Shown here one piece after another: positions 49,890 to 58,964 of a DNA stretch of 64,000 nucleotides. This DNA comes from a virus. The notes under the pieces are model-generated. The model was not told the origin of the DNA, did no database searches, and was given only the letters and a program-made list of their open reading frames with translations. Both the position numbers and the translations under genes were made by a program. The stretch lies in the IMG/VR virus record IMGVR_UViG_3300008952_000005, positions 64,001 to 128,000 of that record. The stretch is one strand, 5' to 3'. Each line of letters opens with the position of its first letter. Position 1 is the stretch's first letter.

Positions 49890-50318
49890 CTAGCTCAGCA
49901 TATTCAAAATTTGCTCAAAATTACCTGCTACTATCCATCCTATTACTATAGCAGCACCTAATATAATCCATCTATATTTTTCTAATACACCAACTCTAAC
50001 ACCAATAGCATTATAAACTGTTTTAATCTCTAGTAATAAACGTCTTTCAGTTTGTTCTATTTCTCTAGTTAAATCTCTACGTATATTGTCTATTTCACCT
50101 GCACGTTCTTTTAACTTCTCAAATATAACTTCATCAATTTGTTCTTGTCTATTGATTTTTTCTGAATGGACTGCCAACATAGACTTAATAGATGTTGATA
50201 CATCTGTTAATTTGTCTATTGCTGTGTCTAAACGGTTGTGAATTCTATCAAATTCTTCAACGTCTTTTTTGAGTTTAGCAATATCTACTTTTGTTTTAAT
50301 TCCGTTATTTTCGTCCAT
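49890..50318 (-). CDS. Coiled-coil protein with C-terminal TM (XhlA/DUF7201-like)
   Basis: Heptads followed by LEKYRWIILGAAIVIGWI. Confidence 0.65.
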   Translation of the reverse strand: MDENNGIKTKVDIAKLKKDVEEFDRIHNRLDTAIDKLTDVSTSIKSMLAVHSEKINRQEQIDEVIFEKLKERAGEIDNIRRDLTREIEQTERRLLLEIKTVYNAIGVRVGVLEKYRWIILGAAIVIGWIVAGNFEQILNMLS

Positions 50319-50540: not shown

Positions 50541-52688
50541 TTAATCCGTTTGTATTATAGTAATATTATTTTGTGTAGAGGAACTCCCTACGTCCACGTG
50601 TTGAGCTTCTGAATCTTGTAAAATCTGTATATCTGCTTCTTTACTTGTTTCAGTTTTTACATACGCTCTATGGCTATCATTATATCTATTTATGATTGTG
50701 TAGTCACCAGACGTTGAAGCAGTTGCGTTAAAGTCGTTATCTAACGTTGATACTCTTCCTGTAGAAGTAGTACTTGTTGACACACCACCGCTTGTTGTAG
50801 TTAAGGTTTGAGTTACATCTCCAGTAGAATAATTTAATGTTTCACCACTAGCAGTTACTTGCGTTTCTGAACCACTATTGTCTACCCATTCAGTACCACA
50901 ACTAGAGTTGGCATTGTCCCAATAGTATCCATAATTTAAACACTCTTCTTTATCATAACTTGCTAATAATAATTCTAATTCTGCGTCTATATCATAGTCA
51001 TCTTCGTAACCATATTCATCTTCCCAATTGGTCTCATCTGATTCATTATTGTAATCGTAACCTGTATACCACCAATCATATACTGCGTCCCAATATGTAT
51101 TCCAATCTGACCATTCCCAATCTGTTATGTACGTATTCTTTAAATCTTTCATCTTCCAAGGTTTAGGTTGATTTTCACACATTTTATAATTAGGATAACT
51201 TCCACACCAACCATATAATTTACCCCATATCTTTTTAGATTCTTTAGTCCAACTATCATTGGTTACTTTTAAAGTCCAGTCATCTTTGTACCACGAATTT
51301 AACCAATCAACATAGTCTTGGTTACACCAGTAGTCATCATAGCCATTGTACTCACAATAATTTTGTATAGTTAATGTTGGTGGACCGCCTGCCGCTTTGT
51401 ATTCTGCATTGTTATAATAGTCATCATCTAAAGCAAAATCTTCCCAAGTATATCCTTCAACTACATCTGCTTCTGTTTCATCTTTTGTATCTTCAACTAC
51501 GTTAACCTCTTCTTCTTCAACTGCCCAAGAAGTTAAACCATAATCTTCTAATAATTCATTATACTCATCATAGTATGCGTCCCAATCAACTGCGTCCCAA
51601 TCTACATCATCCCAATTAATAGTATCCCAAGTACAATCTGAACAACCAATGGCGTCAAAGTATGCTTGATCCATTTCTGCATACATTTTCTTTGCGTCAT
51701 CCCAATCCATAGTTTGTTCACCTTCGGCATCCCAAACTGAAATCTGATTATCTTCATCTATATAACCCCAATCTTTTAAATCTTCTTCCCAGGAATCATA
51801 ATAAGATGTATCAACTTCTTCTACTTCAACTAATGCTGTTTCTTCTGCTGACTTTGTTTCAACTATTGCGTCTGTTTCACCAACAGATAAATCTGTAGCG
51901 ACAATTGTATTACTATCTTCTACTACACTTGCTTCTTCATTAATTAATGCCTCTTCCATTGCCTGTGCTTCAGATTCTTCTTTAGACATTTCAGTTTTCA
52001 TATCTACATCACCAAAATGTTTTTGAGATTCATCTTTTATTTCTTCTTCAAATTCATTTAACTCAATAATATCTGACTTATTAGTTTCTATTTTTGGAGG
52101 TGTTGGTGCTAAATCATTTGATAAAACGGTTACTGAATTGTAAGCGTTAGTTATTGTTTGAGAACCTGCGTCATTGGATACAGTTACTTGTCCTACTACA
52201 CCAGAACTATCTGGCAACAAAGTAATAGTTGCTTCACCTGTAGATGTTACCGTTCCTGAAAAAGCAGTACCTTGTACTGTAATTGTGGCATTACCAGCAT
52301 TGATATTAACTTCACCACCTAAATTAGATATAGAACCTGATTCATATGTAAATGTACCAACATTAACCGATATGTTCATTGCAATTTCTATTGGTACAAC
52401 AGAAGTATCAAAAGCAAATTCATCAATAGTTAATTCTGTATTTGGTCCCATTGTAAATTTAGTTTTATCAACATATGATAAAATCATACCACCATCTTCT
52501 CCAGTTTGGAGAAAGTCATTCATCTGCAACTCATAACCCATTGAGGTATTTTGAGTTGAACCATCTCTTTCGTTCCAAGTCGTACCCATTTGACCTATGA
52601 CTTCGCCAACTTTTGGACCTGTTATTTGTGAGAAAACACTAGTACAAAAAAGTACCAGAAAAGATATTAAAAATAAAAACTTCTTCAT
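50541..52688 (-). CDS. Secreted FecR-domain protein with long acidic Trp/Tyr/Asp-rich region
   Basis: Signal peptide; FecR-like D.LQTG.DG....Y.D.T...MGPNT.L.IDEF, A.I.V.GT.F; DW/YYD repeats; curlin-like C-terminus. Confidence 0.75.
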   Translation of the reverse strand: MKKFLFLISFLVLFCTSVFSQITGPKVGEVIGQMGTTWNERDGSTQNTSMGYELQMNDFLQTGEDGGMILSYVDKTKFTMGPNTELTIDEFAFDTSVVPIEIAMNISVNVGTFTYESGSISNLGGEVNINAGNATITVQGTAFSGTVTSTGEATITLLPDSSGVVGQVTVSNDAGSQTITNAYNSVTVLSNDLAPTPPKIETNKSDIIELNEFEEEIKDESQKHFGDVDMKTEMSKEESEAQAMEEALINEEASVVEDSNTIVATDLSVGETDAIVETKSAEETALVEVEEVDTSYYDSWEEDLKDWGYIDEDNQISVWDAEGEQTMDWDDAKKMYAEMDQAYFDAIGCSDCTWDTINWDDVDWDAVDWDAYYDEYNELLEDYGLTSWAVEEEEVNVVEDTKDETEADVVEGYTWEDFALDDDYYNNAEYKAAGGPPTLTIQNYCEYNGYDDYWCNQDYVDWLNSWYKDDWTLKVTNDSWTKESKKIWGKLYGWCGSYPNYKMCENQPKPWKMKDLKNTYITDWEWSDWNTYWDAVYDWWYTGYDYNNESDETNWEDEYGYEDDYDIDAELELLLASYDKEECLNYGYYWDNANSSCGTEWVDNSGSETQVTASGETLNYSTGDVTQTLTTTSGGVSTSTTSTGRVSTLDNDFNATASTSGDYTIINRYNDSHRAYVKTETSKEADIQILQDSEAQHVDVGSSSTQNNITIIQTD

Positions 52689-53056
52689 TTCTTAAACACC
52701 TCATCTAAATCATTATAAAACGATTCTTTATCTGCATACCCTATTATTCTTACCAATTCTTTTCTACCATTCCATACAATAAATGTTGGTGTTCCTCTAA
52801 TAGGTTTAATTCTTCCTTCAGCATATGCCTCTTTAAACCATTTAGGTTGATTATATAAATTAATAATAACTAAAGGTAAATCTTCATACTCATAGTCAAC
52901 TCCTACCTCTTGTAAAAAGTTTTGACATATACCACACATAGGATTGTGTGCCATTAATAATTCATTTGCTTTCGCTGATGATATGCCTAATACTAATAAT
53001 ACAGTAACACAAATTATTATTGCCCATTTTTCCCAAGGGTTGTGAAATAGTTTCAT
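52685..53056 (-). CDS. Exported thioredoxin-like protein (SoxS-like)
   Basis: Signal/TM; CGIC; GTPTF.VW....E..RI.GY. Confidence 0.8.
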   Translation of the reverse strand: MKLFHNPWEKWAIIICVTVLLVLGISSAKANELLMAHNPMCGICQNFLQEVGVDYEYEDLPLVIINLYNQPKWFKEAYAEGRIKPIRGTPTFIVWNGRKELVRIIGYADKESFYNDLDEVFKK

Positions 53057-53184
53057 TTAAATTTCTTCTTCTTTTCTTTTCTTTTCCATTTTTCTGGATA
53101 GTAATTGTGGATTAGTGTACAGATTATGCCACCCGATAAACATATTGTACCAAATATTAAAAAGAAAGCAAAAAAACCTTTCAT
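53053..53184 (-). CDS. Small membrane protein (43 aa, MKGFFAFFL...)
   Basis: Hand translation; ATGA overlap with the thioredoxin gene. Confidence 0.5.
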   Translation of the reverse strand: MKGFFAFFLIFGTICLSGGIICTLIHNYYPEKWKRKEKKKKFK

Positions 53185-54276
53185 TTAACACCCATTAGAT
53201 ACTGTTGCTGTTACGTCTGCTGTTTGATTGTTTCTGTTATAAGAATAAGTACAAGTATATGATCCAGTTTGAGCAAAGTTTAATGTGTAATCGTAAATTG
53301 AATCACCTGTTATAGTAACCTTACCAGTATTACCACCACCTGTTTGAGCAAAATTTATTACTGTATCATCTGTATAAAGGAAAATTCTAGCAGTATTATT
53401 ACCGCCTGCCATATGTAATCTAATTGTATTACTATCGCCATTTATTATCGTTCTTAACCAATTGTTATCGCCAGATATTATAGCTGAGTCTCCATATGGG
53501 TCTGTATCAGCACTAGTATAACTAGAGTGAATATCTAAAAGATTTGAACTGCCTATAAAATCGTGTAGTTGATAGTTACCTGTACCATATGATGAAGTGT
53601 GTATTACATTTGAATTTCCTACTATGTAAATATCTGCACTTGCACCTTCACTACCTGAACTGTCTGCAAAATAACCGTGTGAAGAAGTTAGTGGACCAAT
53701 TGCTTTGTTAGAGTTTGTATTAAATCCTACTGAATCAGTTGTACTATACCACTCTACAGTATTACTATCACCGTTCATAAGAACATATAAGAAGTGATTA
53801 TCACCTCTATTCTGAACCCAAAATGTATTTGAGTCACCAACAATATCTAAATCAACATTGAAATTTGCTGAATCATCTGTCCAAGTATCATAGTCTACTA
53901 CATTTGAATTACCTGTAATAGTATGACCTAAATAATGACCTGTAGCATCCGTATCATCTATACCTAATCTTAATTTATTAGAATTACCAGTTGCTGTATA
54001 TAATAAAGTCATATCCTCACCATAAAAGTGTTGGTGACCAGAATAATCTGATACATTATTATTACCTATCTGATTTATAATGATTGTAATGTTCTCTCCA
54101 TTGACTTTAAATGGATATGTTGTTGAATAACCAACAGTATTACCTGTTCCATCTTGTTTTATAAAGATAGAACCATCGCTGTCTTGATTGTCTTGTTGAA
54201 TCCAAACTGAATTACCTGCTAGGCAATTACTCGTTAATGCTATTAGAGTCAACAGAATCATTATCATTTTTTTCAT
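53185..54276 (-). CDS. Secreted curlin-like (CsgA/CsgB-type) repeat protein
   Basis: Signal peptide; many Q/I-x-G-x-x-N repeats (QDGTGN, QIGNNN, TGNSN, GDSN, GGNN, QTGGGN); next to csgG. Confidence 0.7.
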   Translation of the reverse strand: MKKMIMILLTLIALTSNCLAGNSVWIQQDNQDSDGSIFIKQDGTGNTVGYSTTYPFKVNGENITIIINQIGNNNVSDYSGHQHFYGEDMTLLYTATGNSNKLRLGIDDTDATGHYLGHTITGNSNVVDYDTWTDDSANFNVDLDIVGDSNTFWVQNRGDNHFLYVLMNGDSNTVEWYSTTDSVGFNTNSNKAIGPLTSSHGYFADSSGSEGASADIYIVGNSNVIHTSSYGTGNYQLHDFIGSSNLLDIHSSYTSADTDPYGDSAIISGDNNWLRTIINGDSNTIRLHMAGGNNTARIFLYTDDTVINFAQTGGGNTGKVTITGDSIYDYTLNFAQTGSYTCTYSYNRNNQTADVTATVSNGC

Positions 54277-55357
54277 CTACTTCCTCCCAGGCTTTCTCGT
54301 CTTCTATTTTTTCTTTTATCTTGTTTTTGTTTTCTTCTTTTTGAATTTCTTTTGTTTTAAGTGCTTCTAAATGTGCTAAATGTGCTTGATATTCGTCCCA
54401 AGTTTTAAACTTTGTTTTATTGGCTTTGTTATAATTTTTTACTTCAAGTTTTTGTGCTTTCTTTAATTCTTTTTTAGCTTTCTTTTCTTTCTTAAAATCT
54501 TCGTATGTTTTCTCTGGTTTTGCTTCGCCAATATCAACTGTTATTTCATCTGCTACTACTTTTAAATCTTCTGTTGGTACTATTTCCACTAGTTCAAATT
54601 CCCATAGTCCTTTTTCTGCACCTTCATTAATTAATTCTACTACACCTTTTTCTATTGCTTTTCTTACTGCATAAGTTACAGGTTCATTTCTTGCCACACC
54701 TGCTTCAATCTCTACTAACATTGTATCAGTATCTAAATATTTAAATATATCGCTGCCAGTTTCACCTGATATTATAGTCTTCTCAACAGTAAGTGATACC
54801 ACTACTTCACCTGTTTGTACATTAACAAGTCTTAATATAATTGTAACTACATCTTGTCGCCATTGTTTATGTGCTTGTATACCTAAAATTCTTGCACCAA
54901 AACCACCTGTCTTTACATCACTATCATAACCTACTATACCACCTGTTATATATGCACCTGCAAATAACAATGGTGGTAATGGTTCTGCACCTTCTCCATT
55001 AACTTGTTGTCTTGTAGAACGGATTAATTTTCTTTCTTGTAATAAACTTGGCAAACTTGCTCGTTCTACTATTCTAAACCATTTGCCATCACCTGCGTCT
55101 TGTAATGCTTTAATTAATAACTGATATGATCCTTGAGTTACTGCTGTACTCATAGACGCAAAGTTACCACCAGGTTTCTTTTGTCCTGTCATATCTAAAA
55201 AATCATATACTGCAATGATAATAGGATCGCCTTTAGGTAATTTCACTTCCGTTAATTCTTTATACAGAACAGGTTGAGACCTAACATCAAAGTCAGGTTT
55301 ACCAGCACAACTAACTAACAATAATGTTAGTAATAATATAACTATACTTCTAAACAT
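54227..55357 (-). CDS. csgG: Curli secretion channel lipoprotein CsgG with charged C-terminal extension
   Basis: Lipobox LVSC; IAVYDF.D.TGQ.K, S.AVTQG....LI.AL, F..VER..L..LL.ER.LIR, GG.VGYD, D.VT..LR.V...TGEV, NEP...AV; likely start MFRSIV. Confidence 0.9.
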   Translation of the reverse strand: MFRSIVILLLTLLLVSCAGKPDFDVRSQPVLYKELTEVKLPKGDPIIIAVYDFLDMTGQKKPGGNFASMSTAVTQGSYQLLIKALQDAGDGKWFRIVERASLPSLLQERKLIRSTRQQVNGEGAEPLPPLLFAGAYITGGIVGYDSDVKTGGFGARILGIQAHKQWRQDVVTIILRLVNVQTGEVVVSLTVEKTIISGETGSDIFKYLDTDTMLVEIEAGVARNEPVTYAVRKAIEKGVVELINEGAEKGLWEFELVEIVPTEDLKVVADEITVDIGEAKPEKTYEDFKKEKKAKKELKKAQKLEVKNYNKANKTKFKTWDEYQAHLAHLEALKTKEIQKEENKNKIKEKIEDEKAWEEVDEKNDNDSVDSNSINE

Positions 55358-55821
55358 TATGAGTTGTCTTCTTTCGGCATTGTAAATGTTGTTACAGTTC
55401 CGTCGGTCTCCGTGACAGTTACGCTTACAGTATCGTTTGCTCCTGTAGTTGTTGTTGCCCAAGTTACTACTTCACCACCAACTGGTGATGTAAATGTACC
55501 AGAGTCTTGTTGTAGACCATCTGTACCAAAAACATTATCTGTAAGTTGTTTAGCAAGTGCTGTATAAAATCTTGATTCAACATTTGCTTTAAATTTTGCT
55601 ATTGCTGTTGCCTTGGCGTCTGCTATTACTTTATCTGCCGCCGCTTTATTCGCTGCCTTTATAGCATCCTTCCTAGTCTTCTCAATATTCTCTATCGTTA
55701 GATAATGTGAAGATTTACCTTGACCTGAAAATGATGGACTATGAAATTTAAAACTTAATTCACTTGCATAGGCACTAGGAACTAACAATAATACTGTTAA
55801 AATAATGGTTATTAATCGCAT
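55357..55821 (-). CDS. csgF: Curli assembly protein CsgF-like
   Basis: Signal peptide; mature SEL.FKF.SPSF.G, F...VESR....LA.QL...FG, C-terminal T.T.TDG..T. Confidence 0.8.
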   Translation of the reverse strand: MRLITIILTVLLLVPSAYASELSFKFHSPSFSGQGKSSHYLTIENIEKTRKDAIKAANKAAADKVIADAKATAIAKFKANVESRFYTALAKQLTDNVFGTDGLQQDSGTFTSPVGGEVVTWATTTTGANDTVSVTVTETDGTVTTFTMPKEDNS

Positions 55822-55844
55822 TTTCCTTCTCTCTTTGATGTATA

Positions 55845-55852
55845 TATTTATA
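55845..55852 (-). promoter_or_regulatory. T4-type late promoter TATAAATA upstream of csgF
   Basis: Exact match about 24 nt upstream of the csgF ATG. Confidence 0.7.
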
Positions 55853-55876
55853 AGATATCTGTACTAAATAGTACGT

Positions 55877-57532
55877 ATGATTAAAATATTGACGAAAACG
55901 TGGGCAGTATATTTGACGTTGATTATATTACTTGGAATATATATATCAAATCCTATCTTGCTACAAACAGCAAAACTAAACACCTTTGATTTTTACCAAA
56001 CCTTTGGTAAGAATTATGAATCCAAAAGTTTAGTACTAGTAGACATATCAGACAAAGCATTAAAAAAGAATGGGCAATGGCCGTGGAAAAGAGATTTACT
56101 TGGTCGTGTCATAATCAATGCGTATAAAAATGGTGCCGCTCTTGTAGTTTTACAAGTAGTCTTCCCACATAAAGATAGATTAGGTGGTGATGAAATGTTT
56201 TTGAAAATGATACAAAAATATCCAGTCATACTTACTGAAACGGATGATGTAAAAAATCTACAAAGTATCTCACGTAAAGCATTAGCAATAGGTAACGTAA
56301 GTGTGCCAGTTGATATAGATGGCACTATAAGAAAACTACCTCTTGATAAATCCATACCTGATGTTATCTTAAAAGTTATCAATGCAAAAACTTTAGCAGA
56401 AGATACTATCTGGATTGATTTCAGACATCATATTCCTAGAATAGATTTTACTGATAAAGATTGGTCGTCTGTAAAAGGTAAAATAGTTTTCATAGGTACA
56501 ACATTCCAAGGTTCAACATTTGTTACTACTCCTAATGGATTAAAAAACACACACGAAATTATGGCAATCAGTACAGAAACTTTATTGTCAGGTAATTTTA
56601 TTAGTAGACCTTATTGGTTACCATATAGTGAATTTGCTTTTATACTATTAGGTGCTCTATTTTTTCTCATAGTTATACCTAGATGTGGTGTAATGTGGTC
56701 TGCGATATGGTTTGGTGGATACTTATTTGATTTAACACTTGCAAGTTCTTATCTATGGACGCAACACTTAATCATAACTGATTGGTTCAGTCCACTTGTA
56801 ATAGGGTCTGTAATATGGGGTCAGTTAACATACAATAACTATTCAAAAGAAAATAAATTAAGACTACAAATTAAGAAACAATTTGAACACTATCTATCTC
56901 CAGATATGGTTAAAAAACTACAAAAGAATCCATCACTATTAAAACTAGGTGGTGAAAGAAAAAAAATGACGTTTTTGTTTTCAGACATACGTGGCTTTAC
57001 TCCTATATCGGAATCTATGAAAGGTAATCCAGAAAAACTTACCAAGTATGTTAATAAGTTCTTGACTGTAATGACTGATATAATATTAAAAAATGGTGGA
57101 ACTATTGATAAGTATATGGGTGATTGTATAATGGCATTTTGGAACGCACCCCTAGACAATCCAAATCATCAAAGATTAGCAGTATTATCTGCATCCCAAA
57201 TGAAAAAAACAGTTGAAGAAATGAATAAGAGTAGAGAGTTTGACCCACCTTTAAAGATTGGTATAGGTATCAATACTGGTGAGTGTCTTGTAGGTAATAT
57301 GGGGTCTGAACAACGTTTTGATTATTCTGTTATTGGTGACGCTGTTAATTTGGCAAGTAGATTGGAAGGTAAAAGTAAAGATTTTGATACTACAATAGTA
57401 ATATCTCAACATACTGCTGAAGGTATTGACTTTGTTCCATTGGCAAGACCAGATGGATTTAAATTCTATAAACTAGGTATCTCTACTGTAAAAGGTAAAA
57501 AAGAAAAGGTTAATTGTTTTTCTATTAAATAA
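55877..57532 (+). CDS. CHASE2-domain membrane class III adenylate cyclase
   Basis: CHASE2 (VDISDKAL...G.WPW.R); 3-4 TMs; cyclase FSDIRGFT, DKYMGDCIMAFWNAP, GIGINTG...VGNMGS..RFDYSVIGDAVNLASRLE. Confidence 0.93.
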   Translation: MIKILTKTWAVYLTLIILLGIYISNPILLQTAKLNTFDFYQTFGKNYESKSLVLVDISDKALKKNGQWPWKRDLLGRVIINAYKNGAALVVLQVVFPHKDRLGGDEMFLKMIQKYPVILTETDDVKNLQSISRKALAIGNVSVPVDIDGTIRKLPLDKSIPDVILKVINAKTLAEDTIWIDFRHHIPRIDFTDKDWSSVKGKIVFIGTTFQGSTFVTTPNGLKNTHEIMAISTETLLSGNFISRPYWLPYSEFAFILLGALFFLIVIPRCGVMWSAIWFGGYLFDLTLASSYLWTQHLIITDWFSPLVIGSVIWGQLTYNNYSKENKLRLQIKKQFEHYLSPDMVKKLQKNPSLLKLGGERKKMTFLFSDIRGFTPISESMKGNPEKLTKYVNKFLTVMTDIILKNGGTIDKYMGDCIMAFWNAPLDNPNHQRLAVLSASQMKKTVEEMNKSREFDPPLKIGIGINTGECLVGNMGSEQRFDYSVIGDAVNLASRLEGKSKDFDTTIVISQHTAEGIDFVPLARPDGFKFYKLGISTVKGKKEKVNCFSIK

Positions 57533-57614
57533 ATGCTATTATTAAATAGCAACTTAACCCTATAACTATTCCCAATACTGCAACAACACCTGCTAAGGTA
57601 TATATTGTCTTCAT
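57525..57614 (-). CDS. Very small membrane protein (29 aa)
   Basis: Hand translation MKTIYTLAGVVAVLG... Confidence 0.35.
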   Translation of the reverse strand: MKTIYTLAGVVAVLGIVIGLSCYLIIAFI

Positions 57615-57775
57615 TTTTTGTCTGTTAACTTATTAATAAGTTCAAACGCTACTTTAACTTTCTCTTCCAACACTTTAATTCTATAGTGTGATTGTGCTAA
57701 AGTAACTATCAATAACACAAATGCTACTAGCATTGGCCAAAGTCTACTCAACATTAATACTGCTTCACTATCCAT
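57611..57775 (-). CDS. Small membrane/coiled-coil protein (54 aa, MDSEAVLML...)
   Basis: Hand translation; coupled on both sides. Confidence 0.6.
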   Translation of the reverse strand: MDSEAVLMLSRLWPMLVAFVLLIVTLAQSHYRIKVLEEKVKVAFELINKLTDKK

Positions 57776-57960: not shown

Positions 57961-58136
57961 TACTTTTGTCTGTTAATTGTTTTCTTAACTAAATCAACAG
58001 TACTTTTACTAATATCTTTAGTCTTTGTTAATAAATTTCCACCAAGGTTTATTATTTTTGTTCTAGGTGTTATCTTTTCTTGTACAATCTTTTTTGTTTT
58101 TGGATCATACTTTTGCTGTAAAAATTCCATTACCAT
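57960..58136 (-). CDS. Small basic protein (58 aa, MVMEFLQQK...)
   Basis: Hand translation; coupled on both sides. Confidence 0.55.
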   Translation of the reverse strand: MVMEFLQQKYDPKTKKIVQEKITPRTKIINLGGNLLTKTKDISKSTVDLVKKTINRQK

Positions 58137-58507
58137 TATTCCTTCTCCTTTTCTTTTTTCTTATCATCTGGTTCATAATATTCTTTATACTGGTCAAGTA
58201 AATCATTAGTGTGTTTCAAGTGTGCTCTTATTTGAGCAAAGTTTTTTGCAATTAATTGAAAGTCCTTATCACTCAATCCAAATAGTACTGGATCAAGTCC
58301 TTCTGCTTCCATCTTTTGGAATACTTCTTCTGCATTGTCAGAAGTAATTATAATCCACCTCAACTTTTCAAGTTCAGGCATAGTTGGTTTAACTAAATCT
58401 AATTTCTGTCTAGGTTCTTCTAACTTAAATATTTTAAGTTGTTTCTCACCGATTGAGCAACCAGTAAGTATTAGAACAGCAATGATACTAATTATTATAC
58501 GGTACAT
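58136..58507 (-). CDS. Lipoprotein, probable o-spanin
   Basis: Lipobox LTGC, Pro-rich segment; overlaps an upstream TM coiled-coil gene. Confidence 0.7.
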   Translation of the reverse strand: MYRIIISIIAVLILTGCSIGEKQLKIFKLEEPRQKLDLVKPTMPELEKLRWIIITSDNAEEVFQKMEAEGLDPVLFGLSDKDFQLIAKNFAQIRAHLKHTNDLLDQYKEYYEPDDKKKEKEKE

Positions 58508-58964
58508 ATGATGGATTTGCTATGGATGGGCACTCCCTATTAATTTCTGATTTTTTGGTTGCGTTCTTCTCTTGTTCGGTAAGTGGTGAACCACCTGCTA
58601 TCTCTACACAACGAATAGCTTTATCACTTGCACCGTTAATAATTCTTTGTATTGTTTCTGTTTTTTCTATGGCGAGTTTACCAAAGTCACGACCTTTTTT
58701 ATTAAATCTTTTATCTAAATCATCTAAATCTTTTTTAAGAGCTGAAACAAGTTCGTTCATCTTGTTGTTTGCTTTTAAAATTTCTTTAAAGTCTTCTTGT
58801 TGCTTAGCAATGAGTTCCTTTTGAGAACTCACTGCTTCTTCCAATTTGATTTGATTCGCTTTTAAAATGGCATTATCGGATCGTAACTTCATTACATACA
58901 TACCTGCACCTGCAAGTCCTGTAATCATCACAACTACCATCGCCATTTTTAAATAACCAAACAT
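58488..58964 (-). CDS. Probable i-spanin
   Basis: N-terminal TM, long coiled coil, two C-terminal Cys. Confidence 0.7.
   Translation of the reverse strand: MFGYLKMAMVVVMITGLAGAGMYVMKLRSDNAILKANQIKLEEAVSSQKELIAKQQEDFKEILKANNKMNELVSALKKDLDDLDKRFNKKGRDFGKLAIEKTETIQRIINGASDKAIRCVEIAGGSPLTEQEKNATKKSEINRECPSIANPSYVPYNN

Follow-up and report, generated by a model that had tools for sequence, protein, structure and literature searches.

A diverged and rearranged phage curli secretion module with a FecR-domain protein and a CHASE2 adenylate cyclase

The window analysed here is a stretch of 64,000 nucleotides (nt), positions 64,001 to 128,000 of the virus record IMGVR_UViG_3300008952_000005, and it contains, at 50541-57532, a locus in which genes for curli (type VIII) secretion stand next to genes for an exported FecR-domain protein and a CHASE2 class III adenylate cyclase. 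This locus is a diverged, rearranged member of a module already described in phages of SAR11 and OM43. In the reading that we favour and hold to be somewhat probable from sequence comparison, the locus couples a curli secretion set with an extracytoplasmic signalling pair of two genes, and the whole would be expressed late in infection, yielding a surface fibre and cyclic AMP (cAMP) that is read by the host.

A preliminary description of the locus, made from the letters of the sequence, knew of no account of a full module of secretion substrate, FecR protein and cyclase, which proved to be mistaken. Wittmers et al. (2022, mSystems; PMC9599517) reported that in podoviral and myoviral pelagiphages CsgF, CsgG, CsgA/B, FecR and adenylate cyclase make up a single conserved module, which is transcribed and globally distributed with gene ratios near 1:1 over 65 ocean stations, and stated that FecR and the cyclase do not belong to bacterial curli operons. 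The GenBank record of phage Melnitz (MZ577097) annotates all module parts, i.e., csgF, csgG, curlin-repeat, FecR-domain and cyclase genes, on one strand. In the record of HTVC008M (KC465899), likewise on one strand, the curli genes and the cyclase are named, and the FecR homologue and a second curlin-repeat protein are listed as hypothetical. The CsgGF genes had been discussed earlier by Zaragoza-Solas et al. 2020 (PMC7029224) and Buchholz et al. 2022 (PMC9004378). The module itself is already published, hence it is no discovery of the present analysis. What is added here is that the sensor of the cyclase is a CHASE2 domain (a word with no occurrence in the main text of PMC9599517), that its FecR neighbour appears to be the phage form of a bacterial FecR/CHASE2 pair, and that this pair recurs beside different export systems, so that a vague 'iron regulator' label gives way to a hypothesis of secretion-coupled cAMP signalling that experiments can test.

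All seven genes of the preliminary description were found at their positions in the window, with lengths in amino acids (aa) and TM denoting transmembrane:

55357-55821, minus strand: csgF, 154 aa, Pfam CsgF match; secreted cap/nucleator partner of CsgG
54227-55357, minus strand: csgG, 376 aa from ATG, Pfam CsgG match; outer-membrane lipoprotein channel
53185-54276, minus strand: curlin-like beta-solenoid subunit, 363 aa, assigned by fold and profile evidence
53053-53184, minus strand: single-TM protein, 43 aa; sporadic insert
52685-53056, minus strand: exported thioredoxin-fold protein, 123 aa, CGIC motif; sporadic insert
50541-52688, minus strand: exported FecR-domain protein, 715 aa, labelled via orthologues and profiles
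55877-57532, plus strand: CHASE2 class III adenylate cyclase, 551 aa, Pfam CHASE2 and Guanylate_cyc
55845-55852, minus strand: TATAAATA, T4-type late-promoter motif, exact match upstream of csgF

The minus-strand genes are transcribed in the order csgF, csgG, 363-aa, 43-aa, thioredoxin-like and 715-aa gene; the csgF stop and the csgG start overlap by 1 nt, and one N-terminal hydrophobic segment can be read from the sequence in every product.

The module is common in marine viral contigs, with relatives of the cyclase in at least 600 viral stretches of IMG/VR, and the best 80 of these loci were analysed (loci here and below carry L numbers). The genes for CsgF, CsgG, curlin, FecR and cyclase occur together in 35 of them, and in our reading of the resulting table all five parts are present in every locus with enough flank except L055. 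In clade A, the window's type, the cyclase is at least 58% identical to that of the window and is accompanied by csgF, csgG, a single curlin (~363 aa) and a FecR protein with a length of ~715-800 aa. In clade B, the HTVC008M/Melnitz type, the cyclase is 33-40% identical to the window cyclase and the order is two small genes, csgF, csgG, curlin, FecR (~370 aa), another curlin and, last, the cyclase. In HTVC008M, the second curlin-repeat protein (AGE60352, L001:5829-7154, annotated as hypothetical) also bears a PA14 domain (E 3e-6), which is of carbohydrate-binding/adhesin type.

The 363-aa protein, previously taken for a curlin-like solenoid, is curlin-like as judged from its predicted fold and from profile matches. 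It begins with a signal peptide, and an invariant ladder of G-x-x-N turns, spaced 11-28 residues apart, runs through 12 orthologues, among which the C342/C363 pair is invariant as well. The AlphaFold2 (AF2) model, with a predicted local distance difference test score (pLDDT) of 71, consists of stacked strand-turn-strand units, and its top structural match is the CsgA of Pontibacter korlensis (8c50_A; Z 24.4, 286 residues, root-mean-square deviation 9.5, 22% identity), followed by a next match at Z 17.6, with generic beta-helices at or below 17.6. This match came from the full VIA search; a Foldseek search of the PDB with the same model gave nothing at E <= 0.001. A profile built from the 12 clade-A orthologues alone detects the curlins of L196 and L199 (E 2e-6 and 3e-5, in a small database), which are encoded beside bacterial csgFG and are positive for Pfam Curlin_rpt. 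The clade-B phage homologues pass the Pfam Curlin_rpt cut-off, and the 363-aa protein itself gives a sub-threshold match to the NCBIfam CsgA model (E 0.003).

Both channel components match Pfam families. CsgF (Pfam E 6e-11; phrog_35372 E 9e-34) is 36-38% identical to CsgF of HTVC008M and Melnitz, and its N-terminal F-x-F-x-x-P-x-F-x-G motif, the CsgG-binding peptide, aligns with residues 20-33 of E. coli CsgF. CsgG matches PF03783 (E 9e-50; 169 bits against a cut-off of 20.8), its residues 8-255 match E. coli CsgG structures (E 9e-48), and a lipobox, L-V-S-C, follows the hydrophobic segment in a reading of the sequence. The C-terminal ~120 aa of CsgG (window 54227-54590) form a Lys/Glu-rich extension beyond the CsgG core, which is missing in E. 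coli and clade-B CsgG; the total length of CsgG ranges from 328 to 474 aa across clade-A relatives.

The divergent cyclase, on the opposite strand and separated from csgF by an intergenic gap of 55 nt, matches Pfam CHASE2 (E 5e-28, 98.7 bits) and Guanylate_cyc (E 2e-22, 80.2 bits), and it aligns to the structure of P. aeruginosa CyaB (E 1e-33). Its layout is a TM segment, a periplasmic CHASE2 domain, TM segments and a cytoplasmic catalytic domain, with hydrophobic segments at residues 1-32 and 247-280. The earlier statement that all six catalytic residues are intact is confirmed by the alignment, in which the two metal Asp, the Lys/Asp adenine pair and the Asn/Arg transition-state pair (D370, K412, D416, D482, N491, R495) are present, and by the invariance of all six in 14 phage cyclases. 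The active site is predicted to be intact and ATP-specific.

The labels of the curlin and FecR proteins of the window come from orthologues, profiles and fold rather than from direct Pfam matches. The 715-aa protein comprises a FecR-like region (~25-210), an acidic linker, a region rich in Cys, Trp, Tyr and Asp (~290-600) and a C-terminal beta region (~610-715). Its first ~230 residues are homologous to the FecR-domain protein of Melnitz (BLASTP E 5e-19) and to its HTVC008M homologue (E 3e-16), which score 40.5 and 35.8 bits, respectively, with the FecR model. The orthologue in L026 (47% identical) reaches 31.5 bits against a cut-off of 24, and relatives 54-76% identical to the 715-aa protein carry precomputed PF04773 assignments. 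The remaining ~500 residues include a middle domain with many Asp, Tyr, Glu and Trp and with conserved Cys, and six Cys are invariant among the orthologues. No recognised fold was obtained for the C-terminal part (whole-protein AF2 pLDDT 53, FecR region <50; structural search Z < 5). A curlin-like C-terminus was also considered; profile-profile comparison with the curlin alignment matched signal peptides only, leaving this idea unsupported at this alignment depth. The preliminary description had likened the protein to FecR-type relays of outer-membrane signals. A FecR-like region is indeed present, but the FecA/FecR/FecI analogy is loose and an anti-sigma role is rejected, because the signal segment (residues 1-24) is followed at once by the FecR-like region, with no room for an anti-sigma domain. 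A better analogy would be the FecR-domain partner that adjoins CHASE2 sensors in bacteria. A complex prediction for FecR with CHASE2 scored 0.00 (two alignments, 51 rows each), which counts neither for nor against binding.

Co-conservation, as supposed earlier, holds for csgF, csgG, curlin, FecR and cyclase, but not for the thioredoxin and small TM genes, which are sporadic inserts outside the conserved operon. Neither is found in the five closest complete relatives, and L004 keeps the 43-aa gene only (67% identical), which among clade-A loci is otherwise limited to the window. The thioredoxin gene is absent at this position in L003-L009, with homologues elsewhere in L008 and L023; its product matches Pfam Thioredoxin_2 at 27.0 bits, exactly the cut-off, and weakly the periplasmic structure 3d4t (E 0.17). 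In L003 the FecR protein begins with the first 29 residues of the window thioredoxin (L003:6200-6290 against window 52970-53056). This junction looks like the mark left by a deletion of the thioredoxin body together with the FecR signal peptide, and such a scar suggests that the two export signals are interchangeable. The invariant Cys in the curlin and the FecR protein may be the reason for the occasional recruitment of an exported thiol-disulfide protein.

The preliminary description placed an exact T4 late promoter before csgF, and TATAAATA is indeed located 23 nt upstream of the csgF ATG. In the AT-rich window, 11 copies are observed and 18 are expected by chance, such that the motif alone is not significant. 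However, it is invariant in an alignment of 7 relatives despite diverged flanks, and it occurs at -29 to -32 of csgF in 12/17 clade-A loci and at -15 in one more, independent of cyclase orientation. Because this position is conserved, late transcription of the minus-strand genes, as had been proposed, is a reasonable inference. A second late promoter before the cyclase was considered at ACTAAATA but is not supported, as this motif is kept in 4 close relatives and nearly so in L008, and is lost in L007 and L009. Scans for sigma-70 promoters and terminators showed no excess over shuffles. Contigs from RNA libraries of 3 studies cover parts of 5 module genes at 90-99% identity, leaving the thioredoxin/43-aa region uncovered, which is not interpretable; they lend weak support to transcription of the module and agree with the published metatranscriptome data (PMC9599517).

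The source of the window is a 177,460-base-pair (bp) virus record with direct terminal repeats that is rated complete. On one side the module is flanked by ribonucleotide reductase, a gp61-type primase and a DUF7201 protein and on the other by a spanin-like pair; identical phage flanks occur in 6 independent metagenome contigs, and near-identical DNA is present in marine metagenomes of at least six studies. The complete record and the 6 contigs rule out the chimeric or host-DNA origin that had been named as a possible objection, and the block is phage DNA. By its primase, the nearest cultured relative is Pelagibacter phage Mosig (74%). The DUF7201 coiled-coil protein (E 6e-15; window 49890-50318, minus strand) lies between the FecR gene and the primase, and is found in the same place in all close relatives. 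The spanin-like pair consists of overlapping genes (window 58136-58507 and 58488-58964, minus strand), the 158-aa member with an N-terminal TM segment and a coiled coil and the 123-aa member with a lipobox in relatives. As the pair adjoins the module in relatives too, a lysis cassette may be located next to it.

To place the FecR/cyclase pair outside phages, cyclase relatives were surveyed with one genome per prokaryotic species, and the best 80 bacterial loci, mostly alphaproteobacterial, were analysed. A FecR-like protein is encoded within 10 kb of the cyclase in 40 of the 58 fully flanked loci, and it abuts the cyclase on its upstream side in 23/79 (18 on the same strand, 5 divergent). These partners are large, with FecR joined either to TPR repeats or to cadherin-like, Big_9, VWA and RTX parts. 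An ABC/HlyD pair accompanies the cyclase in 26 of the best 80 loci, and FecR, ABC, HlyD and cyclase occur together, mostly contiguously, in 17. Effectors that bind cyclic nucleoside monophosphates (cNMP) stand beside the cyclase in 11; the effectors seen near the cyclase include an HlyD-cNMP-binding fusion, cNMP-gated K+ channels, an MscS-type channel, a SpoIIE phosphatase and a symporter. One marine single-cell alphaproteobacterium (L132:5969-20982) combines a cyclase homologue, an HlyD-cNMP-binding fusion and a FecR-RTX protein, and in two SAR86 single cells (L107:14081-15253; L114:12881-13903) a cNMP-gated K+ channel adjoins the cyclase homologue. By sequence comparison, the phage pair of FecR and CHASE2 cyclase matches this widespread alphaproteobacterial pair, which is often tied to the type I secretion of FecR-bearing proteins that are large and adhesin-like. 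The match leads us to propose, by analogy, that the phage module looks like the bacterial FecR/CHASE2 pair re-coupled to a curli export route.

In the mechanism that would follow from the favoured reading, all minus-strand products would be exported by Sec late in infection, and CsgG together with CsgF would form an outer-membrane channel in a host without one. The 363-aa subunit would pass through this channel and give a surface fibre, and the periplasmic FecR-domain protein would act as co-sensor of, or input to, the CHASE2 domain. The cyclase would then produce cAMP to be read by host receptors, since no cNMP-binding domain is encoded in the complete 177,460-bp phage genome.

Several observations weigh against this reading. 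At E <= 0.1, the 363-aa protein has no match to PF07012 (Curlin_rpt) and the 715-aa protein none to the Pfam FecR family (PF04773). CsgE (PF10627) is without a match in the complete phage genome at the same threshold, with the E. coli control detected; CsgE is also missing from the published phage modules (PMC9599517), and the Lys/Glu-rich extension of CsgG might be a stand-in for it. In the constriction loop of CsgG, Tyr51 of E. coli aligns with Gly, and an N-F pair (Asn55/Phe56 in E. coli) is kept at an offset of 1 residue. Searches for CsgG and the cyclase in phage Mosig gave no match, so the module is dispensable and accessory. In the study of Buchholz et al., Melnitz-infected cells showed no clumping (PMC9004378). 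In S. meliloti, the FecR-domain gene beside cyaD1 is a target of cAMP-Clr and is not needed for signal perception (PMC5498481), which suggests that FecR could be an output of the cyclase instead of its input; either direction could apply in the phage. Finally, the cyclase has been relocated and inverted in the window's lineage. It is collinear with the other genes in L017, L022, L023, L026 and L027, where it begins at most about 10 nt after the FecR gene, and it stands upstream of csgF and inverted in the window, L003-L012, L014 and L015, which means that strict co-transcription with the curli genes is not required. The gene of a 54-aa single-TM protein (window 57611-57775, minus strand), kept in all clade-A relatives, lies directly upstream of csgF in the collinear L022 and L023 and is cut off from it by the inverted cyclase in the window, marking the site of the cyclase insertion.

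A more far-reaching interpretation, which is possible but doubtful, starts from a third phage form (L055:1519-10932 and L062:1-6515), in which FecR and the CHASE2 cyclase occur and curli genes do not. The order there is a FecR-cadherin protein (1299 aa), TolC/OEP (578 aa), a 250-aa protein with an ABC-like PHROG match, an HlyD-type membrane fusion protein (241 aa), a 130-aa open reading frame and the CHASE2 cyclase. The source of L055 is probably a related myophage, because its contig has NrdA (68%), NrdB (61%) and several further genes in common with the window's phage. The third form lends support to the view that FecR and the CHASE2 cyclase are a constant core, conceivably a secretion-coupled envelope sensor wired to an interchangeable export machine. 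The export partner, on this tentative scheme, would be CsgG/CsgF in most marine phages, TolC with an HlyD-type protein in L055 and L062, and type I secretion in Alphaproteobacteria. It is likewise conceivable, with the same reserve, that the repeat protein with the FecR domain is itself the substrate, either exported or tethered, and that its FecR end reports export or surface state to CHASE2. If this were true, cAMP would be a signal, to the cell or to the phage, of a surface structure that has been built or engaged. No description of a link between FecR/CHASE2 and export machines was found in the literature; none of the papers listed by a search on CHASE2 with type I secretion (10 of 670) contains the word CHASE2, but the search did not require this word, so that its absence carries little weight.

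The same third form, with FecR and cyclase but no curli genes, can be turned the other way, namely that a hypervariable island houses two auxiliary modules, the curli set and the FecR-cyclase pair, which are independent and have no common function. Bacteria never combine them: CsgG, CsgF and curlin are found in 0/80 of the best bacterial cyclase loci, and among true csgF-csgG-curlin loci, which were present in 7/401 sampled Alphaproteobacteria, 0/7 have FecR or CHASE2 within 10 kb. The movement and inversion of the cyclase in the window's lineage point in this direction as well. However, pair and curli genes are contiguous in both phage clades although these share only 33-40% identity, collinear forms have one late transcription unit, and the gene ratios are near 1:1 at the 65 ocean stations (PMC9599517). 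Moreover, where the curli genes are missing, TolC and HlyD replace them, and bacterial loci often have a type I system. We therefore regard independence of the two sets as rather unlikely.

An export channel without a fibre is less likely still. According to this view, which was proposed for Melnitz (PMC9004378) and for pelagimyophages (PMC7029224), CsgG/CsgF would be a repurposed outer-membrane pore for lysis timing (pinholin- or secretin-like) or solute uptake, with the repeat proteins as accessories. The lack of clumping in Melnitz cultures, the absence of CsgE, the altered constriction loop of CsgG, and the spanin-like pair and small TM gene just past the cyclase all fit a pore. On the other hand, every complete locus has a curlin homologue immediately after csgG, with its invariant G-x-x-N ladder and CsgA-like predicted fold, CsgF retains its CsgG-binding N-terminal motif, and bacterial csgFG loci share the gene order. 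That the cyclase is non-signalling and serves ATP depletion, interference with host nucleotide-based defence or a different nucleotide product is very improbable: the lack of a cNMP-binding receptor in the phage would fit it, but signalling class III adenylate cyclases have the same Lys/Asp pair, metal residues and transition-state residues, the sensor domain and the FecR partner are conserved, and bacterial homologues adjoin cNMP-binding effectors.

SAR11 and its phages are among the ocean's most abundant biological entities. If the predicted functions of a curli set joined to a signalling pair are correct, an infected cell would acquire a surface fibre, a source of second messenger and a secretion system in its outer membrane. 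To our knowledge, none of this sort is known in SAR11 or OM43 hosts. Possible effects could include cell aggregation, particle export, superinfection and lysis timing.

Among known systems, the pelagiphage type VIII secretion module shares with the window the set and order of genes (csgF, csgG, curlin, FecR and cyclase), with each protein homologous, and both are carried by marine T4-like phages. Compared with HTVC008M and Melnitz, the window proteins are 28-48% identical in the best local alignments. The window has one 363-aa curlin where these phages have two shorter ones, and its 715-aa FecR protein carries a Cys/Trp/Tyr/Asp-rich extension, whereas theirs has ~370 aa. The CHASE2 domain of the window is shorter through an internal deletion, and the cyclase is inverted and located upstream of csgF. 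The window module also has the sporadic thioredoxin and 43-aa inserts and lacks the small 'u98' genes. The alphaproteobacterial curli loci have the same order, csgF-csgG-curlin, with CsgG 45-52% identical to the phage protein and curlins that are detected by the phage curlin profile. They differ in having neither FecR nor CHASE2 within 10 kb, and the phage side differs in lacking CsgE.

The CHASE2 cyclases of Rhizobiales (S. meliloti CyaD1, CyaD2 and CyaK) have the same CHASE2 and class III architecture, and the window cyclase is ~30% identical to the rhizobial homologues. The FecR-domain gene SMc02177 adjoins cyaD1 (PMC5498481), and the phage FecR gene is likewise near the cyclase. The S. meliloti enzymes sense an extracellular protein signal via the outer-membrane protein NsrA (PMC13001267). 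Their output goes to the CRP-like regulator Clr, whereas the phage genome is without such a receptor, and the bacterial FecR partners bear TPR, cadherin, VWA or RTX parts, unlike that of the phage. A Burkholderia operon consists of a CHASE2 histidine kinase and an exported LysM/FecR (COG4254) protein (PMC5192318). Its output is a histidine kinase with a response regulator and its FecR protein carries LysM, unlike in the phage, but as in the phage the gene of an exported FecR-domain protein is the immediate neighbour of a CHASE2 sensor gene.

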